A stretch of 64,000 nt of DNA from a virus. Taxonomy: Duplodnaviria > Heunggongvirae > Uroviricota > Caudoviricetes. Made by a program: the position numbers and the translations under genes. Within the stretch, counting starts at the first letter, position 1, and each line of letters starts with the position of its first letter. Where the stretch lies: the IMG/VR virus record IMGVR_UViG_2778261510_000005; one strand, written 5' to 3'. Below are positions 1 through 50,216 of the stretch, piece by piece. Below the pieces are notes generated by a model, which ran no database searches, was not told the origin of the DNA, and worked only from the letters and a program-made list of their open reading frames with translations.

Positions 1-446
1 GCATCAAGCAATTCAGATTTGCCACCGTCGATAAATTTGTCGGTGGTCATTTTGCTGGCTAACCGGTTCAGAGCATCTGCAACCTTCTGGCGTAGATCGG
101 TATCAGTAATATCATCTACACCTTTGCGATAGGTCTGAAATACCGTTGTGACTTTTGCTGGATCAACCTTGTAGGCTACGCCGATGTGGTAACCAATGGT
201 TGTTCCGTCGCTCATCTGGAAGCTGAACGGCTCATCGTATGTCTTCATTTGCTTAAAGGTCGGGAAGATATAAACTTCAGTATTCAAGCCTGTCCAGTAG
301 CGACCAACACCAACTACTTCACCGATACCTTTATCATCCCCCAGCTTATTTACTTTGATCCCTACGTTACCTGGCTCTACCCGATCGCATCCGGTCAGAC
401 ATAAAGAACCCAAAATAATCGCTGCACTAATCAACGTTTTTTTCAT
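1..446 (-). CDS. SPFH/band-7-like lipoprotein, N-terminal 148 codons; gene runs off the window start
   Basis: ATG at 446..444 on minus strand; translation MKKTLISAAIILGSLCLTGCDRVEPGNVGIKVNK... has signal peptide and lipobox LTGC; not in ORF track because it has no in-window stop. Confidence 0.55.
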   Translation of the reverse strand, partial: MKKTLISAAIILGSLCLTGCDRVEPGNVGIKVNKLGDDKGIGEVVGVGRYWTGLNTEVYIFPTFKQMKTYDEPFSFQMSDGTTIGYHIGVAYKVDPAKVTTVFQTYRKGVDDITDTDLRQKVADALNRLASKMTTDKFIDGGKSELLD

Positions 447-663: not shown

Positions 664-1033
664 CCTCTCACTCCATTATTTAACGAATAAAAAAGCTGCG
701 GTGCCGGGTGCCTCCCGGTGTCCTTTGGCTGGTTATCCACCGTGGGCGGGGAAACAAGGAGAAATAATGGACAGATATAACCATTTCCCCGCGTGCGCTT
801 AGCCGCATTCACCGCAACGGAAAGAGCATTCTTGGTGGACCTGTAGATTGGGATATGACCCCGTTACGCCAGTGTTCTCAACGTTGTAGTGCCGGTTACG
901 GTTCCGGCCAGGCCTCTTCCTCAACGGGGGGTTCTCCATACGGACTACCGTTTATTGGTCGTTCCTGCGGTTTATGTTGTGAAGCCAGATGCTTATCTTC
1001 TGGTTGCTTCTAAGAGCTGCACTTCATCACAAC

Positions 1034-1107
1034 GGTAAGGGTACTTCGTAGGGATTCGAACCCTCTGCCAAGCACGGCGATCTCCGACGTCGCAAAATAC
1101 CCTTACC
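1034..1107 (-). other. tRNA-like element with GGTTCGAATCC T-loop motif enclosed by a 10-15 bp inverted repeat; does not fold as a canonical tRNA
   Basis: minus strand GGTAAGGGTA...GGGTTCGAATCCC...TACCCTTACC; terminal arms are reverse complements; no consistent acceptor/anticodon arms found by hand. Confidence 0.25.
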
Positions 1108-1115
1108 TGTTGTGT

Positions 1116-1191
1116 TGGTGCCGGTTAACGGACTCGAACCGCTGACATCCTGCTTACAAGGCAGGCGCTCTGCCAACTGAGCTAAACCGGC
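1116..1191 (-). tRNA. tRNA-Thr (anticodon UGU), CCA encoded
   Basis: minus strand GCCGGTT-TA-GCTC..GAGC-G-CCTGC-CTTGTAA-GCAGG-ATGTC-AGCGG-TTCGAGT-CCGTT-AACCGGC-A-CCA; hand-folded cloverleaf, 76 nt. Confidence 0.85.
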
Positions 1192-1193
1192 AT

Positions 1194-1269
1194 TGGCGAT
1201 GGTGGATGGATTTGAACCATCGACCTGTTGATTAACAGTCAACCGCTCTAACCGCTGAGCTACACCATC
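1194..1269 (-). tRNA. tRNA-Asn (anticodon GUU), CCA encoded
   Basis: minus strand GATGGTG-TA-GCTC..GAGC-G-GTTGA-CTGTTAA-TCAAC-AGGTC-GATGG-TTCAAAT-CCATC-CACCATC-G-CCA; 76 nt, 2 nt from tRNA-Thr. Confidence 0.85.
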
Positions 1270-1937
1270 ACTTGCCGGGTACGTCTCCGGCGAGGGCTTC
1301 CACCTCCGTATGCTTTTCGGCGCACCGCGCCCTGGCTGCAATTCGGTAACAGGGGATGCATAACCCTGGCTTCCAGCGTGATTAGCGCTTTCAGCATGAC
1401 GGGATATACCCGTAAATTCGTGGAACTGTACCCAAAGTGCTGTTAAGCACCGCTGTTACGCTGAAAAGAAGACGCAACAGGAAAGGACGCTGACCAACAG
1501 ATGGCCCCTTCTCGTTCATCTGGTTAATCACACCAGCGCCCTTACCTGTTGTGCCTCCCCGTTCCCTAATACACAGACGGGGACACTCTGCGGTCGATTT
1601 TTTGACGGGGGACGACTCATACCCCGTGGCGCCTGGCTTCTTAGGCCGCTACCATCATCAGATCATCGTTTGCATTTACTTTAATGGTCAGTTTCTAAAC
1701 CGCCGCAAAGTCGCTAACCATGACGAAAACCCTGAAAAAAACGCCCACCCGAAGATGGGCAAACTGGAAGCTCGTAACGCACTTCGGTGTTGCCACTTAG
1801 GCGCATGGTCAACCTGGCAACTCGGCGTCATGAGGGGGAAGGAGTCACTACCCCGCCATACTTGCCGCCGCGCCTGTCGCGGTTAACAGCTAAATCGCTC
1901 TATAAATCACGATTCATTGAGGCGATATTACACTAAT

Positions 1938-1954
1938 AAATTTATTAGAGCAAT
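1938..1954. promoter_or_regulatory. C1-repressor-type operator (AAATTTATTAGAGCAAT), overlapping partial inverse copy CTAATAAATTT
   Basis: 17/17 match to reverse complement of P1 operator consensus ATTGCTCTAATAAATTT; lies between dmt 3' end and the tRNA cluster. Confidence 0.6.
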
Positions 1955-4209
1955 ATCGCCATAACGTCATGAGCAACACCACGAGTGTCTCCCTTACAAG
2001 ACACAGAACGTCTGGCAAAGAGAGGTTCCACTCTGAAGCCACTGTCCTGATAAAGTTCTCTGATGTTTGGCGCGCCACTGTTTGTAATGAGAACTTTTGC
2101 ACCTCGACGATGAGCATCCGTCAACAGAGACACCAGGCGTTTTTGCTCTTCAAACTTAAAGTCATGACCGGAATAGTTCGTGAATCCCTCTGTATTTGGA
2201 AGCGGTTCATACGGCGGATCGCAAAAGATGACATCTCCTTCTCCGGCAGCTTCAATCACCGCTGCAAAATCACCGCATACAAACTCAGACCGCCCTTCCG
2301 CACCGAGGAAGGCTTCCATCTCCTGTAATGGGAAATACGGAGTTTTATACTTCCCATAACCGACATTGAACTCACCGGCCTGGTTGTAACGCGTCAATCC
2401 GTTAAAACAATGTCGGTTCAGGAACAAAAACGCCGCTGCGCGATGTAAATCATCATAGACTTGTTTGTTAAACGCATTCCGTACTGCCAGGTATCCTTCC
2501 TGTGTGTTGTAGTCCTGGAAAAAACGATGTGCCAGAGTGATAAGTGAATGCGCCTCGCGTTGCAGAGTCTTGTAAAAGTTAATCAGGTCAGCATTCACAT
2601 CATTTAGCAGATTTTCCTGGTATCCGGCATTCATGAAGACAGCTCCGCCACCAACGAAAGGTTCAATCAGGCGCTTCCCTTCTGGCAAATAGCGAAAGAT
2701 TTGTTCCAGAACACCAAATTTTCCACCAGCCCATTTGAATATGGACCGTTCGAATTCTGCCGCTGGTTTAACTTTTCGCTCTTTTGTTTCACTTCCTTCT
2801 TTCTGCCGACATACGGCCTTAGTAATCCGATCGCCAATCCAGCGCATTACTGGTATTGCCATACTATTGCCGATCGCTTTGTAACGCGGTCCGTCAGCTG
2901 CAAGCATCGCGGCCTCTTCTTCGCTTAAATCTGGATAGTGATTGCGAAGATATGCCAGTTCATCTGAATTAACTTTTTTACGCTTTTCCGTCGGGATCAA
3001 CGTATGCCCATCAGGAAAACCTTGCAGCCTTTCACATTCGACAGGGGTAAGACGGCGGACAGCTACTTCTGCGTTTCTTACTTCATAGCAAACAGCTGTT
3101 GGATTTTTAGCCATTAGAGATGGTGAAGTATTCTTAGTTGCAGCATGTTGTGTACCGCTCATACGCTCAGGAAAAGCCAATGTAACAAGATGCTCATGGC
3201 TTTCTTGCTCACGTGCCCGCAATGTACCATGCCCTTCTGACCAAAAACCTGCTCCTGTGCTGCTAAAAACGGCAAGGTCAGTGGCATCTTTAAAATCTCT
3301 TGCCTTTACTGTCGATGCGGTTTCATCGTCAATATATTCCCCAAATGCCGCCATCCTGAAAGCGTTTACGGCTTTCGTCGATTTCATACCGGGTGGCATG
3401 TCAGCGTGTAGGCATGGATTTAGGCTTTCGCCACTGATTGCAGCGCCATTTGCAATAATGGCGGAAGCGATTTCCTTCTTTTTTCGGCTCGGCGCAATAT
3501 TCCGGCGCACGCCTTCGAACTCAAAAAGTACCGTTGCGGGATCGAAGTCTGTTCGAGCACTTGCGACAACAAACACGCGTCGGCGTCGTTGTGCCACTCC
3601 GAAGTATTGGGCATCAAGGATTCTCCAGGCCACCTTTCGCTGCGGTCCATAAATACAACCACACTGCGGCCACTTTGGAGCATGGCAACCGGTTTTGCCA
3701 TCCCACCGCCAGAACGCGTTACTTTTTCCTGATTCAGGTCGATCACCTGGTTCAAATGGCGCATCTTCTCCAGCCAATCCGGCAAGGAAACATCCGAAGG
3801 CGTTATCTGCCGATGACAAGACTCCTGGGACATTTTCCCAGACGATAACGGCTGGTTTGAGAAATGACTCAGCCCGTTTGTCGTCAATTGCATTTGCAAG
3901 CTCCACATACTTTAAAGTTAGCGCGCCACGCTCATCATCAAGCCCACCACCTAATCCTGCGATACTGAATGCCTGACAAGGTGTTCCCCCGACGAGCACA
4001 TCAGGGGATTCGATTTCCCCAGCCAGGACTTTTTGGGCAAGTTTTGTCATGTCGCCAAGGTTGGCGACATGGGGCCAGCGGTGCGCAAGAACGGCAGATG
4101 GAAAAGGCTCGATTTCAGCAAACCACGCCGGACGCATACCCAACGGTTCCCAGGCAATACTCGCGGCTTCAATTCCACTGCAAACAGATCCATAGCACAG
4201 CTCTTTCAC
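1945..4209 (-). CDS. dmt: bifunctional DNA methyltransferase: C5-cytosine MTase N-terminal half, Dam-like N6-adenine MTase C-terminal half
   Basis: 754 aa; C5 motifs [12 protein letters not shown] and VIVWENVPG; Dam-type motifs FKWAGGK and FCDPPYEPL; GTG start overlapping upstream stop (GTGA). Confidence 0.85.
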
Positions 4210-5111
4210 TGCTTAGCCTCTCCACCAAGGGCATTTACCAGAGCATCAACCAGGCACGAAATTTCACTGGTCAACAGGAAGAAATCTGCGTCCAGTCGCT
4301 GCGCAACATCTTCATTATCAATATCAGAGTTCTGCTCAAGCAATTCATCCGCAAATTTGACGCTGGTAAGGCTGAAGTTATGGTCCAGTGTAAATTTAAT
4401 GCGGTTCTGCCAGTCGAGTGCCAACTTAGTGACGAGCTTGCCAGCTTCCAGGTGTGTGGAAATTTCATCGCTTCCCAAATCCTGCTTTTTCACTCGGGCA
4501 ATACCGCCATCCTCAAGCACTGCCTTAAGTTCTGCCGCATCCCCCATTTGAAATCCTTGTGGAGCACTACCATCACGTACCCAGTCGGTCAGCGTTAATT
4601 CAATGGGATTTTCAACACTCAGGGGAACAACAGGAAGAGAACCCAGAGACTTACGCATAAGCGCGAGCATATCCTCTGCCTGCCGCGCGCTGGCATTGAT
4701 ATAGATACGTTTAGTTGAACCGTCGTAGATCGCCTGGATAACAGAAAACTTTGAAAAAGCCCGTGGCAGAAGAGAATGCAGAACTTCGTCTTTCAGGGAG
4801 TCCTTCTCTGTTTTCTTCAGTTTACGCGCTTGTTCTTGCTCAAGTTTTTCAATTTTTTCTTGAATAGCTCGCTGGATAACCGGCGGGGGAAGAATTTTTG
4901 TTTCGCGCTTTGCTTCAACAAGGATAAAACCATTTCCATGCATAGCGATAACTTCGGAATTATCACCAAATGGAGATACAAAACCGAACTTGGCCATATC
5001 CTGACTACCGCATGGCGTGAAAAGGATCATTTTCTTTTTATCTTCTAAGTCGGTCAGATCCGCCTCACGAGAAAGTTTATAAATAGTAATGTTTTTCCAG
5101 TGCTTAAACAT
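4206..5111 (-). CDS. hrdC: RdgC-like recombination-associated protein
   Basis: N-terminus [16 protein letters not shown]...[14 protein letters not shown] resembles E. coli RdgC (MLWFKNLMVYRL...); start trimmed to ATG at 5111 with AAGGG RBS. Confidence 0.8.
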
Positions 5112-5451
5112 GTTGTAACCCTTGAATATCAACCACAGAAAGCTCGTCTTTGTAGAAAAAGGCCAGGTTGTGGCACCCCCTCGTTTGAGCGTATGAGCTG
5201 GGACCAATTTCGTTCTTCCAGACAAATGGCTTCAAATCCGTACGGCGAAGCATAAAAACGCGATTTGTTCCGCTCTGATTCCCAATGAGGCAAAAGCCTT
5301 CTTTCACCTTGATAGCCTGCAAGTTGTCGAGTTCACCGCTGGTTACACGGCTATCGAACTCTTTGCGGCTTATTAGCTCCATCTGCATCTGACGACTCCA
5401 AACAAATGCCCATTGAAGGGCGATGGCTGAATGGTACCGAAAATACGACAT
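5104..5451 (-). CDS. hypothetical protein, first gene of the operator-controlled hrdC-dmt operon
   Basis: ORF overlaps hrdC start by 8 nt; ATG at 5451 just downstream of the operator at 5460-5476; no clear SD. Confidence 0.4.
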
Positions 5452-5459
5452 AAAAAACA

Positions 5460-5476
5460 ATATTTATTAGAGCAAT
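5460..5476. promoter_or_regulatory. C1-repressor-type operator upstream of the uhr-hrdC-dmt operon
   Basis: ATATTTATTAGAGCAAT, 16/17 match to operator consensus. Confidence 0.6.
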
Positions 5477-5557
5477 TTTGCAATAGTTGAACTCCATGTA
5501 GACCACAAACAACCTGAGTTAAAATAACGAAAATCAGAGCAAATAATTGGTGATGAC

Positions 5558-5842
5558 GTGGCAAGTATTGCAACAAAAGACAGCATTTGTTCGGGGCACG
5601 GAGGATTCCCATCTAGGCCTCCTGTAGAGAGTGAACCACTACTTAAAGTCAACGGAGTCGAAGTGTTAGTTGATGGTAAGCAATATGCACAGCATACCGA
5701 TGGAAACAGTACGCACGGTGGGCAAGCTATATCAACCAGGGCATGGTTTACCGTCAATGGTAAAGGGATCGTATGCGTTGGTGACCCTGTTTCATGCGGA
5801 TCTACCGTAGCGTCCGGAGACGGCCTGGTTCAGGTAAGTTAG
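5558..5842 (+). CDS. PAAR-like small cysteine/glycine-rich protein
   Basis: 94 aa, GTG start; repeated HGG, VNG/VDG and CxGD motifs (SICSGHGG...NSTHGG...VNGKGIVCVGDPVSCG) typical of PAAR-type spike tips. Confidence 0.45.
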   Translation: MASIATKDSICSGHGGFPSRPPVESEPLLKVNGVEVLVDGKQYAQHTDGNSTHGGQAISTRAWFTVNGKGIVCVGDPVSCGSTVASGDGLVQVS

Positions 5843-5850
5843 GAGATATC

Positions 5851-6639
5851 ATGCTGGAAAAAGACTACCAGTTATCCGCATATAAAAAATTGGCCGCCGC
5901 CGGTGGGATGAAAACACCTGGTGCCATAACATCGGCACGAAACAGTGCTAACACAGCAAAACTGCTTGCAGAAGAATTGACCGGATTAATTCTGGATACA
6001 ATTGTCTATCCCGACACTATTACCAGCTATGTTTCAACGATCAGAACAACCACAACCGGCTTAACGAACATTGTCGAACTGGCAACTAAGCACGCGGACC
6101 TGTTGGCTGGTTATGCAGATCTGTCAATGCTGCTTCAACTCGATATTGGTTGGGATGTTTACTGCCGTGCTAATGAGCGAGAAGTATCAGAACTGCCGAT
6201 CTCTATTGCCATTGGTGATGTGACTATTACTAAATCGCTTGAGGACGCTGTAAACGCGCTTAATACATCAAGTTTAATCGCTGCTATGGGGGAGATTAAC
6301 CAGACCCTTAACACTGGCTCAGGAAGCTCGTCAGGCTCTGGTTCAGGCGGCGGCACTGCCACTCCCCCACCAGCACTAACAGAAGAGCAAATTGAATCTC
6401 TGAAAGTAGCAACTGAACAGTTTGGGGTTGTTTTCAACCAGACAACAGCGCCCACAACTGCGTTACAACAGCAGTATGAACGAGCGAATGAAAGCGCCAA
6501 TGTAGCCATAACTGCTTATAACCATGCTATCGGTACTGCGCTTGCGGAAGCATCAGCAAATAAGGCCAGCACAGCCAGCGCAGTTGCTGCTTTGGTTCCT
6601 GATTCTGTTCTTGATGAATTAAACAAAGCGGCACAGTAA
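5851..6639 (+). CDS. hypothetical two-domain protein with Gly/Ser-rich linker
   Basis: ATG at 5851 preceded by AGGAG (5841-5845), 8 nt after PAAR-like stop; linker GSGSSSGSGSGGGTATPPP. Confidence 0.55.
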   Translation: MLEKDYQLSAYKKLAAAGGMKTPGAITSARNSANTAKLLAEELTGLILDTIVYPDTITSYVSTIRTTTTGLTNIVELATKHADLLAGYADLSMLLQLDIGWDVYCRANEREVSELPISIAIGDVTITKSLEDAVNALNTSSLIAAMGEINQTLNTGSGSSSGSGSGGGTATPPPALTEEQIESLKVATEQFGVVFNQTTAPTTALQQQYERANESANVAITAYNHAIGTALAEASANKASTASAVAALVPDSVLDELNKAAQ

Positions 6640-6678
6640 CAAAGGACTTCATTGATAATTTTCCTTCAGGAGGAAGAC

Positions 6679-7101
6679 ATGTCATTCTTTTCTACGTTAA
6701 AAACAGCTTTGTCTTTGAAGGAGAAACTTGCTGCTACTGGTGTTCTTGTTCTGATTTGCGCACTTGTTGGTGCTGGGTTTGCATGGGAACGTCATCAGCT
6801 AAAGCAAGCCATCGAGAAAATTGGCAGTCTTGATCAGGCTGTTAAGGAACGTGATAAGTCAATAATGGATCTTAACCAGACCATTGAGACGATGAACAAA
6901 GCAGATCAACATTTTCACAGCCAGGAAGTGAAAAATGAATCAGAGCAAGCCAAGTATGCTGACAGGCAAATGGAACGAAAAGCAGAAGTTCAGAAACAAC
7001 TGGTTGCGGCGGGTAATGTTCGCCAGCGCATTCCTGCTGACACTCAGCGGTTGCTCCGGGAGTCGATCAGCGAATTTAACGCCGACGCCGACAAAGGTTA
7101 A
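6679..7101 (+). CDS. i-spanin-like (Rz-like) protein: N-terminal TM helix plus coiled coil
   Basis: ATG 6679 with GGAGGA RBS; TM segment ATGVLVLICALVGAGFAW followed by charged helical region; overlapped out-of-frame by a lipoprotein ORF. Confidence 0.5.
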   Translation: MSFFSTLKTALSLKEKLAATGVLVLICALVGAGFAWERHQLKQAIEKIGSLDQAVKERDKSIMDLNQTIETMNKADQHFHSQEVKNESEQAKYADRQMERKAEVQKQLVAAGNVRQRIPADTQRLLRESISEFNADADKG

Positions 7102-7267
7102 CCACCCTGCCCCCAAAAGTGCATTTATGTGCAGGATGCCGGAGTTTAGCAGTGAATATTTTGATGATCTGCCAGCGTATATCCTCGATACAGAAACGAT
7201 GCTGATGGGGATTAACAGGAAGAATCGCAACGTTAATGATTACAACCGCGCTATCAGCGGTAACTAA
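7016..7267 (+). CDS. o-spanin-like (Rz1-like) outer-membrane lipoprotein, overlapping the 3' end of the preceding gene in another frame
   Basis: internal ATG at 7016; MFASAFLLTLSGCSG lipobox; Pro-rich mature part; starts inside 6679..7101 and extends 166 nt beyond it. Confidence 0.45.
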   Translation: MFASAFLLTLSGCSGSRSANLTPTPTKVNHPAPKSAFMCRMPEFSSEYFDDLPAYILDTETMLMGINRKNRNVNDYNRAISGN

Positions 7268-7278
7268 AAGGGATTTTT

Positions 7279-7671
7279 ATGTCTGATAAAGTAACAGTTA
7301 AGCAAACTATCAACAAAGCGACTTCAATCTATAAAATTGAGCAAATCACTGTTGGCAAGCCAGGATCTGAACAATACCGTCATGCTTTCGAACTTGCCGA
7401 TCAGCTTGGTTTAAAACACCCGGATTGTATCGAGCATGTATTTCCAACTTATGCTGATGAGCAATGTAATCAAGTGCTTATTGAAGAGGATTTTTTCAGC
7501 ACTGAAGAACGAGAAGGCGTTGATCGCTGCATTGGTGTGATTTGTTCTTCGGTAAGTGATGATTTATTCCCTAATGTTCCGGAAGGTGGTGGTGTTGGAT
7601 ACCAATTCCTGTATGAAGGCGATGAGCTTAAATGTTATGAACATGGTCTTCTTATCGAAAGCGTAGAATAA
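7279..7671 (+). CDS. hypothetical acidic protein
   Basis: 130-aa ORF, ATG start, followed by intrinsic terminator. Confidence 0.5.
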   Translation: MSDKVTVKQTINKATSIYKIEQITVGKPGSEQYRHAFELADQLGLKHPDCIEHVFPTYADEQCNQVLIEEDFFSTEEREGVDRCIGVICSSVSDDLFPNVPEGGGVGYQFLYEGDELKCYEHGLLIESVE

Positions 7672-7685
7672 TACGGTTTCCTTCC

Positions 7686-7709
7686 AACCGGCTTTGTTGG
7701 CCGGTTTTT
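7686..7709 (+). terminator. rho-independent terminator
   Basis: AACCGGC/GCCGGTT stem, 7-nt loop, then TTTTT. Confidence 0.6.
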
Positions 7710-7712
7710 CAC

Positions 7713-7790
7713 TTATCCACATTATCCACTGGATAGATCCAATAATCAGGTCCATACAGATCCCAATTAGATCCATATAGATCCCTGATC
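7713..7790. promoter_or_regulatory. oriR: plasmid replication origin core: tandem DnaA boxes followed by five GATC-containing repeats
   Basis: TTATCCACA (7713-7721) and TTATCCACT (7722-7730) adjacent; GATC at 7736, 7759, 7770, 7780, 7787 within AGATCC-type repeats; another DnaA-box-like CTATCCACA at 7963-7971. Confidence 0.7.
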
Positions 7791-7829
7791 GTCGTAGGCC
7801 GCGCCCCGTCTGGCTTAGAAGCCTTTCGC

Positions 7830-7933
7830 GATGTGTGCTGGAGGGAAAATGATGTGCGCTGGAGGGAAAAAAATGTGTGCTGACGGGTTGCTAATGTGTG
7901 CTGGCGGGATATAGGATGTGTGCTGACGGGAAA
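7830..7933. repeat. incC: five direct 19-bp iterons spaced about 21 bp (RepA binding sites, repA promoter)
   Basis: GATGTGTGCTGGAGGGAAA at 7830; variants at 7851, 7872, 7893, 7915. Confidence 0.8.
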
Positions 7934-7989
7934 GCCTGGGTAGTTATCACCGCTTATAAAAACTATCCACATAATTCGGAAAAAGTAAT

Positions 7990-8850
7990 ATGAATCAATC
8001 ATTTATCTCCGATATTCTTTACGCAGACATTGAAAGTAAGGCAAAAGAACTAACAGTTAATTCAAACAACACTGTGCAGCCTGTAGCGTTGATGCGCTTG
8101 GGGGTATTCGTGCCGAAGCCATCAAAGAGCAAAGGAGAAAGTAAAGAGATTGATGCTACCAAAGCGTTTTCCCAGCTGGAGATAGCTAAAGCCGAGGGTT
8201 ACGATGATATTAAAATCACCGGTCCTCGACTCGATATGGATACTGATTTCAAAACGTGGATCGGTGTCATCTACGCGTTCAGCAAATACGGCTTGTCTTC
8301 AAACACCATCCAGTTATCGTTTCAGGAGTTCGCTAAAGCCTGTGGTTTCCCCTCAAAACGTCTGGATGCGAAACTGCGTTTAACCATTCATGAATCACTT
8401 GGACGCTTGCGTAACAAGGGTATCGCTTTTAAGCGCGGAAAAGATGCTAAAGGCGGCTATCAGACTGGTCTGCTGAAGGTCGGGCGTTTTGATGCTGACC
8501 TTGATCTGATAGAGCTGGAGGCCGATTCGAAGCTCTGGGAGCTGTTCCAGCTTGATTATCGCGTTCTGTTGCAACACCACGCCTTGCGTGCCCTTCCGAA
8601 GAAAGAAGCTGCACAAGCCATTTACACTTTCATCGAAAGCCTTCCGCAGAACCCGTTGCCGCTATCGTTCGCGCGAATCCGTGAGCGCCTGGCTTTGCAG
8701 TCAGCTGTTGGCGAGCAAAACCGTATCATTAAGAAAGCGATAGAACAGCTTAAAACAATCGGCTATCTCGACTGTTCAATTGAGAAGAAAGGCCGGGAAA
8801 GTTTTGTAATCGTCCATTCTCGCAATCCAAAGCTGAAACTTCCCGAATAA
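7990..8850 (+). CDS. repA: iteron-binding plasmid replication initiator
   Basis: 286 aa; flanked upstream and downstream by arrays of the same 19-bp iteron; size and context as in P1 RepA. Confidence 0.9.
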   Translation: MNQSFISDILYADIESKAKELTVNSNNTVQPVALMRLGVFVPKPSKSKGESKEIDATKAFSQLEIAKAEGYDDIKITGPRLDMDTDFKTWIGVIYAFSKYGLSSNTIQLSFQEFAKACGFPSKRLDAKLRLTIHESLGRLRNKGIAFKRGKDAKGGYQTGLLKVGRFDADLDLIELEADSKLWELFQLDYRVLLQHHALRALPKKEAAQAIYTFIESLPQNPLPLSFARIRERLALQSAVGEQNRIIKKAIEQLKTIGYLDCSIEKKGRESFVIVHSRNPKLKLPE

Positions 8851-9095
8851 GTGTGTGCTGGAGGGCAGCTGCATTTGAAAAATGTGCGCTGCCGGGTTGC
8901 GCCACGCAGTTTGCCCAGACATTCCCTCCAGCACACATCTAACCATCCAAGTTTCCCTCCAGCGCACATCTAATCTTCTATCTTTCCCTCCAGCACACAT
9001 ATTTGATACCAGCGATCCCTCCACAGCACATAATTCAATGCGACTTCCCTCTATCGCACATTCTGGTCCTGCATCATCCCTCCAGCACACATCTA
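8850..9095. repeat. incA: about eight to nine iterons in mixed orientation (copy-number control locus)
   Basis: two forward GTGTGCTGGAGGG-type copies (8850-8897) then six reverse CCCTCCAGCACACAT-type copies through 9093. Confidence 0.8.
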
Positions 9096-9202
9096 ATAGC
9101 CTCATCGCCATTTCTTTACGTGCAATAATTGACGCACGAATCAAAAAAAGTTGCACGTAGCAGAATCAAACGTACAATTCACTCATACGAAATGATAAGG
9201 AG

Positions 9203-10414
9203 ATGATGATGAAACGCGATTACGGCGGTGTCGGCACCATAGCTCTTCGTGCAAGCGCATTACTTAAGGCCATGAGTCAGGATATTGAAGATCAGCGCAA
9301 AGAGTTCAATCAGACCGAGTATTATCAGACGTTCACTCGTAACGCTGTGGCAAAGTTGCCGAAGCTGAGCCGCCGCATTGTGGAGCAGGCCATCAAAGAG
9401 ATGGAAGATGATGGGTACCAGTTCAACAAGAAACAGGTCGGTAACGTTGAACAGTACGCGCTGACCATCCAGAACGTCATTGATATCTATGCCCACCGTA
9501 AGATCCCCAAATATCGCGACATTCACAAATCGCCTTACGTTATTTTTGTCGTAAACCTGAAGGGTGGCGTATCCAAAACGGTTTCCACAGTCACGTTGGC
9601 GCACGCTCTGCGTGTGCATCAGGATTTACTGCGTCACGATCTGCGCATTCTGGTAATTGACCTTGACCCTCAGGCATCCAGCACAATGTTCCTCGACCAT
9701 ACTCACAGTATTGGTTCCATCCTGGAAACCGCCGCGCAGGCGATGCTGAACGACCTGGACGCGGAGACGCTACGCAAAGAGGTGATTCGTCCGACCATCG
9801 TTCCTGGCGTAGACGTGATTCCAGCCTCTATCGACGATGGCTTTGTTGCCAGCCAATGGAAAGAGCTGGTTGAAGAGCATCTTCCCGGACAAAATCAGTA
9901 CGAAATCCTTCGACGCAATATCATTGATCGTGTTGCGGATGATTATGACTTTATCTTTATTGATACCGGTCCACACCTGGATCCGTTCCTGCTCAACGGT
10001 CTGGCGGCCAGCGATTTGCTGCTTACCCCTACCCCACCAGCCCAGGTTGACTTCCACTCAACACTGAAATATCTCACCCGTCTGCCAGAAATGCTGGAGC
10101 AACTGGAGGAGGAAGGCGTAGAACCGCGTTTGAGCGCCAGCATTGGTTTTATGTCGAAGATGACCGGCAAGCGCGATCACGAGACATCACACAGCCTTGC
10201 GCGTGAGGTTTACGCCAGCAACATTCTGGACTCTTCTCTGCCTCGTCTGGATGGCTTTGAGCGATGCGGCGAGTCTTTCGACACCGTAATCAGTGCCAAC
10301 CCGCAATCGTATCCAGGCAGTGCAGAGGCGCTGAAGAAGGCACGAACCGAGGCCGAGCGTTTCACTAAGGCTGTGTTTGATCGAATTGAGTTTGTTAGGG
10401 GTGAGGCGGCATGA
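9203..10414 (+). CDS. parA: partition ATPase (type Ia ParA/SopA family)
   Basis: deviant Walker A NLKGGVSKTVSTV; three consecutive ATGs at 9203-9211, AGGAG directly upstream so the third is the likelier start; long N-terminal DNA-binding extension. Confidence 0.9.
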   Translation: MMMKRDYGGVGTIALRASALLKAMSQDIEDQRKEFNQTEYYQTFTRNAVAKLPKLSRRIVEQAIKEMEDDGYQFNKKQVGNVEQYALTIQNVIDIYAHRKIPKYRDIHKSPYVIFVVNLKGGVSKTVSTVTLAHALRVHQDLLRHDLRILVIDLDPQASSTMFLDHTHSIGSILETAAQAMLNDLDAETLRKEVIRPTIVPGVDVIPASIDDGFVASQWKELVEEHLPGQNQYEILRRNIIDRVADDYDFIFIDTGPHLDPFLLNGLAASDLLLTPTPPAQVDFHSTLKYLTRLPEMLEQLEEEGVEPRLSASIGFMSKMTGKRDHETSHSLAREVYASNILDSSLPRLDGFERCGESFDTVISANPQSYPGSAEALKKARTEAERFTKAVFDRIEFVRGEAA

Positions 10415-11376
10415 AAAAAATAGTTTCCCGTGGACGAGTGCTGGGCAAGAATAGCTCCGAGTTTGCTCGCATGCTTGAAGGCAGTGAAGGCACCAAAACC
10501 TTTACCCTAAAATCTGGCCGCCAGGCTAAATTCTTGCTTACCGTCGTGCTGAGTGGTGAGATTGAGTCGCGCACGTTCGTTGACCCGGCAGTTAACGGCC
10601 GCGATCAGTCTCTGCTCACCCCTGAGTCGGTAAGCGATATTTCCCGCACCATTAAATTGCAACAGTTCTTCCCGGCTATCGGTCGTATGGTTGGGGAGCG
10701 CATTGAGGTATTGGACGGATCGCGTCGCCGTGCTGCGTGTATCTTCAATGAAACGAAATTTGAGATTCTGGTGACGAAAGATGAGATCAGCCTGGCGGAT
10801 GCCCGCCAGCTGGCCATTGATATCCAGACAGCCCGCGAACACACTCTGCGCGAGCTGGGTAAACGCTTCGAGGTTATGTACGGTAAGAATATGACCAAAG
10901 AAGAGATCGCCCGAGCTGAGAACATCTCAAAGGCTAAAGTGACGCGAGCTTTCCAGGCTGCCGCGGTGCCGGATGAGATGATTGCTGTCTTCCCCGTAGC
11001 CAGCGATCTCGCCCTTCCAGATTACCAGTTACTGCTCCAGATCGCCGAGGATGCTAACGCTAAAAGCGTGCCGATTGAAGAGCTGGTTGATACGGTGCGC
11101 GAACGAATTGCAGAGACTGAGGGCGCGAAAGAGGATAAAGCGAAGATACTGGCTATCTTCAAAGCGGAAAGCAAAAGCCTGAAGCCCGCGCCGGTTAAAT
11201 CTGTGGTGGTTGAGAAGCTGCGAGACTTCTCTGACCGTCGCCAATATGCCCGAAAGAAGTCCGATCCGAAAAAACGGGTTGTCGCCTACGAGTTCTCCAG
11301 ACTCCCGTCTGAAGTGCAAACTGAAATTGACGAAGCAATAAAAAAAATCATTGGGAAAATGTCTGCTGGGGAATAA
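10411..11376 (+). CDS. parB: partition centromere-binding protein
   Basis: 321 aa, ATGA overlap with parA stop; position and size as ParB of P1/P7 family. Confidence 0.85.
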   Translation: MKKIVSRGRVLGKNSSEFARMLEGSEGTKTFTLKSGRQAKFLLTVVLSGEIESRTFVDPAVNGRDQSLLTPESVSDISRTIKLQQFFPAIGRMVGERIEVLDGSRRRAACIFNETKFEILVTKDEISLADARQLAIDIQTAREHTLRELGKRFEVMYGKNMTKEEIARAENISKAKVTRAFQAAAVPDEMIAVFPVASDLALPDYQLLLQIAEDANAKSVPIEELVDTVRERIAETEGAKEDKAKILAIFKAESKSLKPAPVKSVVVEKLRDFSDRRQYARKKSDPKKRVVAYEFSRLPSEVQTEIDEAIKKIIGKMSAGE

Positions 11377-11439
11377 TCCCGCTGGTGGGAGGCGGCTTTA
11401 GCCCCCTCCCCTGTCTAAAATGTCCCGCGCCTATTTCAT

Positions 11440-11535
11440 GTATAAATATATGATATATATAGATATTCATGAAAAATTTCAGACTGAAATTCCCACGGTT
11501 TCACGCCTGTTTTAGTTGGGGCCCTCCCCCGCACA
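11440..11535. promoter_or_regulatory. candidate parS centromere region (AT-rich bend site flanked by ATTTCA-type heptamers)
   Basis: TGTATAAATATATGATATATATAGATATT AT-tract; AAATTTCAG, GAAATTCCC, GGTTTCACG heptamer-like repeats just downstream of parB. Confidence 0.4.
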
Positions 11536-38376: not shown

Positions 38377-38658
38377 ATGTGTGATTTCACAATAATGCTC
38401 CTCTCCATCCTTGGCGGGGTGCATTCGTTTCTGAATGGGGTTTGTGAAAAACGTTACGAAGCGTCATGCAGGCAATTGATGGCCGAGTGTATTGCTGCCG
38501 TACTTGCAGGCTTTATAGGCATGTATTTCGCGGAATATAAGGGTATGGATGAAAGTCTTCAGAATTGCGTGACTATTATTTGCAGCATCAATAACAGGCT
38601 CATTCTTGAAAAGTTACAAAGGATTATTGATTCGTACCTCAATAGAAATGCCTCTTAA
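38377..38658 (+). CDS. small membrane protein, holin-like
   Basis: 93 aa with two hydrophobic segments; AAGGAA RBS; first gene after divergent AT-rich promoter region. Confidence 0.4.
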   Translation: MCDFTIMLLSILGGVHSFLNGVCEKRYEASCRQLMAECIAAVLAGFIGMYFAEYKGMDESLQNCVTIICSINNRLILEKLQRIIDSYLNRNAS

Positions 38659-38725: not shown

Positions 38726-39055
38726 GTGCTTGACACACAGGAATTAGCTCCAGTTGCTATTGCGCTCCTGCTTTCAGTAATTGGTGGGATAGGCACGTTC
38801 CTGATGGATGTCCGAGACGGTCGCCAGTCTGGCAATTTGTTGGGATTGGTTACGGAGATCTTTGTTGCAGTGACAGCTGGCGCGGTGGCGTACCTATTGG
38901 GGCAACACGAGGGCTGGGAGTTATCAATTACGTACTTAATGGTAACGATAGCCAGCAATAACGGTCATGAGGTGATTTCAGGGATGAAACGAGTGAATAT
39001 CGATAGCATTCTGAATGTTCTTACAAGTTTGGTGAAAAAGGGAGGCGGGAAATGA
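38726..39055 (+). CDS. holin-like membrane protein (LydA-like position)
   Basis: GTG start after GGAGGG RBS; two TM segments LAPVAIALLLSVIGGIGTFLM and IFVAVTAGAVAYLL; C-terminal charged tail. Confidence 0.5.
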   Translation: MLDTQELAPVAIALLLSVIGGIGTFLMDVRDGRQSGNLLGLVTEIFVAVTAGAVAYLLGQHEGWELSITYLMVTIASNNGHEVISGMKRVNIDSILNVLTSLVKKGGGK

Positions 39056-39495
39056 TTGGCTGGGGTGTATGCGTTCTTGCGTTAGCCTTAGCCGATCGCT
39101 ATTTGCTAAAACGCAAGGACATCACGCATTTAGAACTTGGTGATGTGGAAATTAAACCGGGTTTCATCCGGGTACCGTTCAAGTACCGGTCTAAATTCCC
39201 GTTTTTGCGCGGCGCAACGGTCAGATATTGGATCCGCGATGTTCAGAAGCCGACGACAGTGATTGAAGGTGAACAACGTTGTCTGACGTCGGCTGAACAG
39301 GGCGAAAACAGTGAATGGTTGTACATACCCACTGAATATATGGGTAAAGGAGAGCGACTGTGGCATTTCAACGTCATGGTTACGCATGGCGACTCGTTCA
39401 TTAACCCGTTGTATCGGATTTTCCCTGTTACTCAGCAAATCCGCAGAAGTTACGTAATAAATCTCGCACAGGATGTGTCAGATGACGAAAAATAA
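39052..39495 (+). CDS. antiholin-like protein (LydB-like position)
   Basis: ATGA overlap with preceding gene; N-terminal TM segment; 147 aa. Confidence 0.45.
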   Translation: MIGWGVCVLALALADRYLLKRKDITHLELGDVEIKPGFIRVPFKYRSKFPFLRGATVRYWIRDVQKPTTVIEGEQRCLTSAEQGENSEWLYIPTEYMGKGERLWHFNVMVTHGDSFINPLYRIFPVTQQIRRSYVINLAQDVSDDEK

Positions 39496-48031: not shown

Positions 48032-48589
48032 ATGAAGGGAAAAACAGCCGCAGGAGGCGGTGCAATTTGCGCTATCGCGGTGATGATTACCATCGTGATG
48101 GGTAATGGCAATGTGCGAACCAACCAGGCAGGGCTTGAGCTGATTGGTAACGCTGAAGGTTGCCGACGTGATCCATACATGTGCCCGGCGGGGGTATGGA
48201 CTGACGGGATCGGTAATGCACACGGGGTAACGCCGGGTGTGCGAAAAACCGACCAGCAAATCGCCGCTGATTGGGAAAAGAATATCCTGATCGCTGAACG
48301 CTGTATTAATCAGCACTTCCGGGGCAAAGACATGCCCGATAATGCCTTCAGTGCAATGACAAGCGCGGCATTCAATATGGGATGTAATAGCTTACGGACC
48401 TACTACAGCAAAGCGCGAGGCATGCGAGTAGAAACGTCCATCCACAAGTGGGCGCAGAAAGAGGAATGGGTGAATATGTGTAACCATCTCCCTGATTTCG
48501 TGAACAGTAACGGCGTGCCCCTGCGAGGTTTAAAGATTCGCCGTGAAAAAGAACGCCAGCTTTGCCTGACGGGGCTGATCAATGAATAA
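48032..48589 (+). CDS. lyz: SAR-endolysin (T4-lysozyme fold with N-terminal signal-anchor-release domain)
   Basis: 185 aa from ATG 48032; Gly/Ala-rich weakly hydrophobic N-terminus AAGGGAICAIAVMITIVMG; catalytic E...D...T in NAEGCRRDPYMCPAGVWT. Confidence 0.85.
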   Translation: MKGKTAAGGGAICAIAVMITIVMGNGNVRTNQAGLELIGNAEGCRRDPYMCPAGVWTDGIGNAHGVTPGVRKTDQQIAADWEKNILIAERCINQHFRGKDMPDNAFSAMTSAAFNMGCNSLRTYYSKARGMRVETSIHKWAQKEEWVNMCNHLPDFVNSNGVPLRGLKIRREKERQLCLTGLINE

Positions 48590-48836
48590 ACTCCGGCAGC
48601 TCCGCCGACTTTCGACAATGAAGTTATCGCTGGCGGCGATAGTTTTCGACTCGATTTTCATGGCGGTATATGTGCTCAATGAGACGTGGCCACTGGAACC
48701 GCTATTATATGCCGGGCTTCGGCTGTGCCTGACATTTTTGAGCATGGCTGCGAGATTGATGCAGCAGAAAGAAACCGCTTCAGATTGTCCACGCCGCGCG
48801 GTGCGCAAATATATGGCACGCAGGCGAAGGCGATAA
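48582..48836 (+). CDS. small membrane protein overlapping lyz 3' end
   Basis: 84 aa, 8-nt overlap with lyz; hydrophobic core, Arg-rich C-terminus; followed by terminator. Confidence 0.4.
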   Translation: MNKLRQLRRLSTMKLSLAAIVFDSIFMAVYVLNETWPLEPLLYAGLRLCLTFLSMAARLMQQKETASDCPRRAVRKYMARRRRR

Positions 48837-48875: not shown

Positions 48876-50216
48876 GGTGGTTATCCGGTGCGCCGTAAAA
48901 TCCCGTCCTTCAGGGAGGGGATATAAGGCGTGGTTTTCCACCTAACTGTTTTTGTTTAAAATAGTGGGATGAAGCGACTACAAGCATTTAAATTCCAGTT
49001 AAGACCCGGTGGTCAACAGGAGCGTCAAATGAGGCTCTTTGCCGGAGCTTGTCGTTTCGTTTTCAATCGTGCACTGGCACTTCAGAATGAGAATTATGAG
49101 GCCGGGAATAAATACATCCCTTACACGAAAATGGCTTCCTGGTTGGTTGAGTGGAAAAAAGACACTGAAACCGAATGGCTTAAAGATTCTCCCTCACAGC
49201 CATTGCAGCAGTCACTGAAAGACCTTGAGCGGGCCTACAAAAATTTCTTCCAGAAGCGGGCGGCTTTTCCCCGATTCAAAAAGCGGGGACAGAATGATGC
49301 ATTCCGCTACCCGCAGGGTGTTAAGCTCGACCAGGAAAACAGCCGTATTTTTCTGCCGAAACTTGGCTGGATGCGCTACCGTAACAGCCGGCAGGTCACG
49401 GGGATTGTGAAAAATGTCACTGTCAGCCAGTCCTGCGGTAAATGGTACATCAGTATTCAGACAGAAAGTGAAGTATCCACTCCGGCTCACCCTTCAGCAT
49501 CAATGGTCGGATTGGATGCTGGCGTGGCCAGGCTCGCCACGCTGTCAGATGGCACAGTCTTTGAGCCTGTAAACAGTTTCCAGAAAAACCAGAAAAAGCT
49601 GGCGAGACTTCAGCGCCAGTTAAGCCGCAAGGTCAGATTCAGCAACAACTGGCAGAAGCAGAAACGCAAAATACAGCAACTGCACTCCCGTATCGCAAAT
49701 ATCCGCAGAGACTACCTTCATAAAGTCACAACGATCATCAGCAAAAACCACGCAATGATTGTCATTGAGGATTTGAAGGTTAAACACATGTCAAAGTCAG
49801 CGGCGGGTACGATAAGTCAGCCGGGTCGCAATGTCCGGGCAAAATCAGGTTTAAACCGTTCGATACTGGATCAGGGCTGGTATGAAATGCGCCGCCAGCT
49901 TGCGTACAAGCAGCTCTGGCGTGGCGGTCAGGTGCTTGCTGTTCCGCCAGCGTATACAAGCCAGCGTTGCGCGTACTGTGGTCATACAGCGAAAGAGAAC
50001 CGCCTGTCACAAAGTAAATTCAGATGCCAGGTATGTGGATATACAGCGAACGCCGATGTAAATGGCGCTCGCAACATTTTAGCGGCGGGGCACGCCGTTC
50101 TTGCCTGTGGAGAGATGGTGCAGTCAGGCCGCCCGTTGAAGCAGGAACCCACCGAAATGATTCAGGCGACAGCCTGAACGTAGCAGGAATCCACGCCCGT
50201 CAGGGCGTGGAGGGTG
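48876..50216 (+). mobile_element. IS200/IS605-family tnpB-only element inserted between lysis genes and prohead protease gene (ends approximate)
   Basis: intact tnpB; right-end hairpin CCACGCCC-GTCA-GGGCGTGG at 50191-50210 about 6 bp from the convergent protease stop; no tnpA ORF; left end not resolved. Confidence 0.5.
48969..50177 (+). CDS. tnpB: TnpB RNA-guided endonuclease (OrfB_IS605)
   Basis: 402 aa; RuvC-I GLDAGV, RuvC-II IVIEDL, zinc ribbon CAYCGHT...CQVCGYT, Ruv[14 protein letters not shown]. Confidence 0.85.

Follow-up and report, generated by a model that had tools for sequence, protein, structure and literature searches.

An overlapped, spanin-like gene pair of a P1-like phage-plasmid, orthologous to ppfA and mlp of P1

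Can two small overlapping genes that lie beside a plasmid origin, far from the recognizable lysis genes, encode the two subunits of a spanin? This question is raised by positions 6679 to 7267 of IMG/VR virus record IMGVR_UViG_2778261510_000005 (Caudoviricetes), of which we analyzed a stretch of 64,000 nucleotides (nt), hereafter the window. A preliminary description of the window had noted a gene for an N-terminally anchored coiled-coil protein (6679-7101) and, starting inside it in another frame, a second open reading frame (ORF; 7016-7267) for a lipoprotein with the lipobox LTLSGC. It interpreted the two as an overlapped spanin-like pair of Rz/Rz1 architecture. We find that the two genes correspond to ppfA and mlp of phage P1, and the sequence comparisons described here indicate that their products very probably form a two-component, overlapped-class spanin, with PpfA as the predicted inner-membrane subunit (i-spanin) and Mlp as the predicted outer-membrane lipoprotein (o-spanin). 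Coordinates refer to the window; ppfA, mlp, and the features within or directly before them are all on the + strand.

We evaluated the pair by the criteria for two-component overlapped spanins in Summer 2007 and Kongari 2018. The gene mlp (6935-7267) starts inside ppfA (6679-7101), in a different frame, and continues past its stop codon. PpfA has a single N-terminal transmembrane domain (TMD) followed by a mainly helical domain, with an N-in/C-out orientation inferred. Mlp has a signal peptidase II lipobox and no retention residue at position +2, with a signal sequence that is atypically long at 39 amino acids (aa). The pair is conserved, and both frames are under purifying selection. Holins, an antiholin, and a SAR-endolysin (signal-arrest-release endolysin), the expected lysis partners, are all present in the window.

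The window derives from a P1-like phage-plasmid. Positions 6600-7700 share 96.5% nucleotide identity with positions 62921-64021 of P1 (NC_005856) and 96 to 97% with SJ46, P7, and RCS47, which are other P1-like phage-plasmids, and positions 843-8896 are collinear with P1 at 97.2% identity. PpfA differs from its P1 counterpart by one substitution (E76D relative to P1; 99.3% amino acid identity) and Mlp by three (N4S, L17Q, and V32A relative to P1; 97.3%), all three in the N-terminal part that overlaps ppfA. None of these differences is of functional note. By this high identity, both proteins fit the P1 ppfA/mlp orthologous group (the spanin families 'P1' of Kongari 2018). The gene order upfC-upfB-ppfA-mlp-(upfA)-oriR-repA is shared with P1 and is also kept in relatives at 59-64% identity, and P1, P7, SJ46, RCS47, and other P1-like phage-plasmids have the same overlap, the same neighbors, and the same scattered lysis genes as the window. 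It is essentially certain that the two genes are orthologues of P1 ppfA (P1_gp064) and mlp (P1_gp063). In the P1 record (NC_005856), ppfA is annotated with a 'possible periplasmic function', and mlp carries the note 'membrane lipoprotein precursor ... possibly involved in regulation of lysis (by homology)' and the RefSeq product name 'Rz-like spanin'.

Does the second frame encode a protein at all? Gene callers often miss mlp or report a truncated piece of 45-52 aa, as might be expected if the frame were a chance ORF with a fortuitous lipobox and ppfA the sole gene. The substitution pattern contradicts this explanation. In the 150 nt past the ppfA stop codon, which are coding for mlp only, the ratio of nonsynonymous to synonymous substitution rates (dN/dS) in the mlp frame is 0.07-0.12 against relatives at 60% identity, compared to 1.7-2.7 in the other two frames of the same segment, which served as a control. 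Within the 167-nt overlap (6935-7101), the ppfA frame dominates (dN/dS 0.15-0.25), and the synonymous rate in that frame, 1.5-2.2 in the upstream part of the gene, is roughly halved here (0.7-1.1), as dual coding would lead one to expect.

Conservation of the frame leads to the same result. A word-indexed protein search reached relatives down to 59% PpfA identity, and an exhaustive HMMER search was needed to recover those at 25-30%, of which it added three; the PpfA search of genome contigs returned near-identical P1-like loci only. At all 10 of 10 P1-like loci (59-99% PpfA identity), the +1 frame is open and places a lipobox Cys 49 nt before the end of ppfA. The lipobox itself reads LSGC, LSAC, LNGC, or LNAC at these ten loci, and also LSSC when distant relatives are counted. 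In two relatives at 30% identity, the lipobox Cys lies 55-64 nt before the ppfA end in the same frame; the overlapped +1-frame lipoprotein is retained in P0077 (151 aa, 92-94 kb contigs) and P0085 (145 aa, a short contig), and the loci at about 30% identity (L014, L015, and L016) have the C-terminal motifs FMC.MP, DL.GYI.D, and N.KN..VNAYN in common. The preliminary description had named loss of the embedded frame in relatives as a refutation of its proposal; the frame persists down to 30% PpfA identity. A lipoprotein-signal filter applied to the 64-kb window returned three ORFs, compared to 0.4 expected from shuffled sequence, and mlp is the only one of the three that overlaps the 3' end of a gene for a type II membrane protein. 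On these comparisons, both ppfA and mlp behave as real, conserved protein-coding genes; the dN/dS values and the conservation at 30% PpfA identity rule out a chance ORF, to which we assign a practically negligible probability.

At several related loci, public records and gene callers annotate mlp only as a truncated ORF of 45-46 aa that lacks the signal peptide and lipobox and begins at an internal ATG equivalent to window position 7127 (L002 2028-2168, MH422554; L003 4458-4592, JK004; L009 3449-3589; L011 3049-3186; and L015 3467-3607), and other public records leave mlp unannotated. The most distant PpfA-like match (25% identity, E = 1.5e-4) lies at 2332-3002 of locus L017 (P0091), an unrelated phage contig, where a separate lipoprotein gene (MKRLITLALFLALVTLPGC...) begins as the first gene reaches its stop codon, forming a 'separated' spanin-like pair. 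We set this pair aside as evidence because its neighbors have no lysis annotation.

The frame of mlp and its end at 7267 were correctly placed in the preliminary description, and the start is the part that we revise. Read from stop to stop, the frame opens at 6932, and its first ATG is at 6935. A Shine-Dalgarno (SD) sequence, AGGAAG, is located at 6923-6928, within ppfA codons Q82-E83-V84; it reads AGGAGG in distant relatives, and Kongari 2018 Table S1 gives this site for P1 gp063. We compared the mlp start in the window, P1, and relatives at 59-64% PpfA identity (Cronobacter phage JK004 and Salmonella, Klebsiella, and other contigs). The first ATG and the AGGAGG/AGGAAG site are kept at all eight of the eight loci compared, and the internal ATG at 7016-7018 is present in the P1 clade only, with Phe, Leu, or Val codons elsewhere. 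Because of this difference in conservation, mlp most likely starts at 6935 rather than at 7016; the P1 GenBank/RefSeq annotation and Kongari 2018 Table S1 both use the equivalent start. With this start, the overlap of ppfA and mlp is 167 nt rather than 86 nt, and the predicted Mlp precursor has 110 aa, consisting of the 39-aa signal sequence and a 71-aa mature lipoprotein with six Pro residues.

If mlp were instead translated from 7016, the signal peptide would have 12 residues (MFASAFLLTLSG, ending directly before the Cys), and the frame upstream would be non-coding for Mlp. An ATG does exist there in both the window and P1, a 39-aa signal is abnormal for a lipoprotein, and the N-terminal 27 residues of Mlp, which are poorly conserved except for their basic character, are carried along by the evolution of the ppfA frame (within the overlap, dN/dS for the mlp codons is >1). 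This start is nonetheless unlikely: the ATG is missing from every relative outside the P1 clade and follows no recognizable SD sequence (gcggcgggta), the resulting peptide would lack a positively charged n-region, and the first ATG with its strong SD sequence is universal among the loci compared. LipoP also reportedly accepts the long precursor, cleaving P1 Mlp at position 39 (Kongari 2018 Table S1). A start in between, 48 nt upstream of the Cys codon, is equally possible and would yield a textbook 17-aa signal; the codon at that site is TTG in the window (7004) and ATG in three relatives, and the site is missing in two.

Starting from 6935, the features of Mlp are those predicted for an o-spanin. 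The lipobox L-S-G-C, within the LTLSGC that had been noted earlier, is encoded at 7043-7054, and the Cys codon at 7052-7054 specifies the predicted lipid-attachment site. The residue at +2 is Ser, which predicts sorting to the outer membrane; the Asp that would retain a lipoprotein in the inner membrane is absent. Mlp has just one periplasmic Cys, Cys66, which does not vary within the family and is matched by a Cys in the alignment to LysC, the o-spanin of P2; by analogy, Mlp is probably a homodimer joined by a disulfide through this residue. PpfA has no periplasmic Cys, and therefore any PpfA dimer would be non-covalent.

The ppfA gene begins 5 nt after an SD sequence, AGGAGG, that we read at 6668-6673 and that Kongari 2018 Table S1 gives for P1 gp064 as well. 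It encodes a 140-aa protein with a short predicted cytoplasmic N-terminus, a TMD, and a helical domain of approximately 104 aa that is predicted to be periplasmic. The anchor reported in the preliminary description is borne out by a single hydrophobic stretch, aa 17-35 (LAATGVLVLICALVGAGFA; codons 6727-6783), which is the hydropathy maximum of the protein (Kyte-Doolittle 19-mer mean 2.35). Q, A, K, and E are abundant in the 104 residues that follow. We modeled PpfA with AlphaFold2 on the basis of 19 family members; the model, at moderate confidence (predicted local distance difference test, pLDDT, 66.7), has a long helix at 13-110, a linker at 111-119, and a second helix at 120-137. Heptad periodicity is clear only from approximately aa 38 to 78 and is statistically weak (power at 3.5 residues, p ~0.03; heptad a/d score equaled in 12% of shuffles). 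Given a helical model and weak heptad support, the description of PpfA as a membrane-anchored helical protein is solid, and a coiled coil, as first proposed, is only plausible. On one E. coli contig (L010 59-481), PpfA begins with 23 residues of unrelated sequence in place of its own and is P1-like thereafter, which suggests a recombination or insertion breakpoint within ppfA.

We then asked to which known spanins the two proteins are related. PpfA matches three PHROG families labeled 'Rz-like spanin': phrog_89 (E = 1.1e-24) and, more weakly, phrog_739 and phrog_214. Mlp matches phrog_30284, the P1-type 'Rz-like spanin' family, over its full length (E = 1.8e-76) and phrog_456, also labeled 'Rz-like spanin' (E = 3.8e-5). 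In an hhalign comparison of profile against sequence, the Mlp family aligns to P2 LysC over 65 columns (probability 87.6%, E = 3.5e-6), and the alignment covers the signal peptide, the lipobox Cys, the Pro-rich stretch, and the second conserved Cys, which in both proteins is part of a C-x-M-P motif. Against the NCBIfam model NF038368 (P2_Rz1), Mlp scores 14.4 bits (E = 0.033), compared to a curated cut-off of 27; Mlp thus appears to be a remote homologue of LysC that falls short of the curated threshold for membership.

The architecture is also closest to that of P2. As with lysB/lysC of P2, the o-spanin frame (+1) begins within the i-spanin gene and continues past its stop codon, and both pairs adjoin tail genes (in P2, R and S follow lysC). 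The two systems differ in that P2 lysB/lysC follow immediately after holin, endolysin, and lysA, whereas 31-41 kb separate the P1-type pair from its lysis genes; that PpfA has no significant similarity to P2 LysB beyond the TMD; that LysB, unlike PpfA, contains periplasmic cysteines; and that the Mlp signal sequence has 39 aa. Lambda Rz/Rz1, the experimentally characterized prototype, is an embedded two-component spanin, and a mechanism shared with ppfA/mlp is presumed. The two pairs are alike in combining a predicted type II inner-membrane helical protein with a small, Pro-containing lipoprotein encoded in the +1 frame. Lambda Rz1, however, is wholly inside Rz, whereas mlp runs 166 nt beyond ppfA; mature Mlp has 71 aa compared to 40 aa for Rz1; lambda Rz has periplasmic Cys residues that PpfA lacks; and neither Pfam nor hhalign detects sequence homology between the pairs. 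The label Rz/Rz1 used in the preliminary description is therefore loose, and the overlapped spanin-like organization that it noted stands. Overall, ppfA/mlp appears to be built like the overlapped spanin LysB/LysC of P2, with PpfA in a narrow family of its own.

The surroundings of the pair bear on its function. It belongs to a same-strand cluster (+) that begins with the orthologue of upfC (5558-5842; Pfam PAAR_motif 8.5e-6; phrog_281), continues with that of upfB (5794-6639; phrog_1559, 7.8e-138, and the P1 annotation) just upstream of ppfA, and ends with that of upfA (7279-7671; phrog_1453), which is replaced or absent in some relatives. A hairpin resembling an intrinsic terminator (7686-7706, +; 8-bp stem with five GC pairs) and its T-run (TTTTCACTTAT; together 7686-7716) close the cluster ahead of oriR. 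In recent cryo-electron microscopy work on P1, UpfC is the PAAR-like tail spike tip and UpfB is the baseplate 'tripod' (PMC12810830; also PMC9024508). Because these are tail and baseplate proteins of the virion, the functional neighbors of ppfA/mlp are tail genes, as in P2, and expression of the pair during lytic growth is suggested. The plasmid origin merely adjoins the pair; as previously reported, it is next in line, with the oriR homologue at 7696-7933 (95.8% identical to P1 oriR) and repA at 7990-8850.

Several observations weigh against a spanin role. No Pfam family matched PpfA or Mlp, and neither had a match at E <= 1 to PF03245 (Phage_lysis) or Rz1. PpfA scores 17.9 bits (E = 0.003) against the NCBIfam model of P2 LysB (TIGR03495), for which the cut-off is 92.75, and hhalign gives the PpfA family non-significant probabilities of about 2.3% with P2 LysB and 1.6% with lambda Rz. 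The value for the Mlp family and lambda Rz1, about 4%, is not significant either, and we reject membership in the lambda Rz/Rz1 family on these hhalign results and the lack of a Pfam match. Kongari 2018 Table S1 lists P1 Mlp without a Prosite hit and flags it 'Too long signal sequence', and the 39-aa length is indeed atypical. The P1 spanin assignment is itself purely bioinformatic, from predicted features (PMC9025707). In a genome-wide CRISPR interference (CRISPRi) screen of P1, efficiencies of plating were 1.3/1.2 for ppfA and 0.24/0.19 for mlp, and both were scored non-essential for plaque formation, whereas lambda Rz was scored essential in the same study (PMC10695390). The P1 result is compatible with spanins being dispensable in some laboratory conditions and gives the assignment no support.

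Expression signals add to these points. We derived the motif AAGTKACTT-N4-TAnnAT from the annotated P1 late promoter LP23 and found six matches in the window at two or fewer mismatches, compared to 0.45 expected: 11573, 31849, 38679, and 47926 on the + strand and 52999 and 11653 on the - strand. The motif precedes gene 23 (11573), lydA (38679), and lyz (47926); the window scan found none before upfC or ppfA. In the P1 annotation, sigma-70 promoters alone are predicted for ppfA (NC_005856). Our own sigma-70 scan was no better than chance (four found, compared to 4.7 expected from shuffles). The sole sigma-70-like hexamer pair before upfC (5519-5547) lies approximately 45-60 bp downstream of a homologue of the P1 C1-repressor operator Odmt (Op68; 5457-5476), which is situated between the divergent uhr/dmt operon and upfC.

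These points could mean that PpfA and Mlp are real envelope proteins without a lysis role, for example a lipoprotein and membrane protein expressed from the prophage that alter the envelope in superinfection exclusion, in serum or colicin resistance, or in a role tied to the neighboring tail-tip proteins. The missing late motif and sigma-70-only predictions, the non-essential knockdowns, and the lack of a Pfam or above-threshold NCBIfam spanin match all favor such a role, as do the distance from the other lysis genes (31-41 kb) and the narrowness of the PpfA family, which has 34 matches at E <= 1e-3 among 1.84 billion representatives in the exhaustive HMMER search, the majority of them fragments of that same family. 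What makes an envelope role improbable is that a type II membrane protein overlapped by an outer-membrane lipoprotein is the defining spanin signature, and it is intact down to 30% identity; in addition, Mlp is remotely homologous to LysC, PpfA matches the three PHROG spanin families, and the co-oriented upstream genes encode virion proteins, not lysogeny genes. Moreover, P1 has no other spanin candidate, and the other two lipoprotein ORFs of the window have no type II membrane partner.

A further view, to which we give only a slim chance, combines two options: either Mlp is a regulated, dual-start o-spanin whose basic N-terminal extension would delay export or yield two isoforms, an idea modeled on the dual starts of holins and antiholins, or the pair has an envelope function linked to the tail tip. 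It is prompted by the universal first ATG and SD sequence, the highly basic 39-aa signal, and the internal starts in some clades, and by the co-orientation with upfC/upfB, the missing Lpa-type late motif, and the CRISPRi dispensability. We consider a conventional two-component spanin the best account of the pair.

As a spanin, the pair would act by analogy with lambda Rz/Rz1 and P2 LysB/LysC. PpfA would be inserted in the inner membrane in an N-in/C-out orientation, with its helical domain in the periplasm, and signal peptidase II would process Mlp at Cys40, after which the lipidated protein would travel by the Lol pathway to the periplasm-facing (inner) leaflet of the outer membrane. The C-terminal regions of the two proteins would then bind, forming complexes that cross the periplasm through the peptidoglycan mesh. 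After triggering by the LydA/LydD holins and degradation of the wall by the SAR-endolysin Lyz, the freed complexes may cluster and collapse or fold back, and this collapse would fuse the inner and outer membranes and remove the last barrier to phage release.

The genes for these partners lie elsewhere in the window, all on the + strand. A lydC-like holin gene (38377-38658; Pfam Phage_holin_3_3; PHROGs) is followed by the holin gene lydA (38726-39055; Pfam Phage_holin_3_3) and by lydB (39052-39495; Pfam LydB, 8e-104; PHROGs). The preliminary description had called this whole interval holin-like, which is appropriate for the first two genes; LydB is an antiholin. The SAR-endolysin that it placed at 48032 is the SAR-type lysozyme gene lyz (48032-48589; Pfam Phage_lysozyme, 2.5e-21), and next to it is the holin-like gene lydD (48582-48836; phrog_21930, holin). 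The lysis functions are thus scattered, as was stated at the outset, with ppfA/mlp 31 kb from lydC/lydA/lydB and 41 kb from lyz/lydD rather than in a lysis cassette. Location in or beside the lysis cassette is usual for spanin genes and not obligatory.

Other features of the window are recorded here as observations in their own right. Approximately 130 bp past lyz-lydD, a gene for an IS200/IS605-type TnpB (48969-50177, +; OrfB_IS605, Cas12f1-like TNB, and helix-turn-helix domains) suggests that an element was inserted where the lyz operon ends. At 22554-23075 (+), a 173-aa lipoprotein (LLSGC, Gln at +2) has weak TraT and glycine-zipper matches; its phrog_1277 label, 'DNA methyltransferase', looks like a mis-annotation. 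The gene after it (23079-23618, +) encodes a secreted, highly charged helical protein of 179 aa in family DUF5384. We considered 22554-23618 as a second spanin and rejected it: the lipoprotein comes first, its partner has a cleavable signal and not a TMD, and the matches are to TraT-like proteins and DUF5384. An ORF at approximately 2-446 (-), which reaches the start of the window, has a canonical lipoprotein signal (MKKTLISAAIILGSLCLTGC) with Asp at +2, predicting inner-membrane retention. In the partition region (9093-11473), we obtained no blastn match to the P1 par region, while both flanks are 97-98% identical to P1, and the incA iteron region is 87% identical to that of P1; together these imply a par/incompatibility allele other than that of P1.

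The assignment of ppfA and mlp as spanin genes is already known, from the spanin literature since 2007, a curated table since 2018, and the RefSeq name. P1 ppfA and mlp were identified as Rz/Rz1 equivalents from predicted features, according to the citation of Summer et al. 2007 in PMC9025707. The latter paper (2022) also describes the P1 spanin genes as partly overlapping and as belonging to an operon that is not linked to the remaining lysis genes, although it interchanges the names i-spanin and o-spanin for the pair. Kongari 2018 Table S1 lists P1 gp064/gp063 as an 'ovl' OIS/OOS pair in their own families 'P1', with no periplasmic Cys in the i-spanin and one in the o-spanin. Among the papers searched, we found no later experimental study of P1 ppfA/mlp. 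The proposal of a spanin-like gene pair in the preliminary description is supported by the sequence, and the published P1 assignment agrees with it.

For P1-like phage-plasmids, many of which carry resistance genes, one consequence is practical: several GenBank records annotate mlp wrongly, as a truncated product without the lipobox, or omit it. The long Mlp signal sequence, the promoter, and the timing of expression provide small questions for studies of P1 lysis. The conservation and dN/dS evidence presented here strengthens the bioinformatic assignment of the P1 spanin and fixes the likely start codon of its o-spanin gene.

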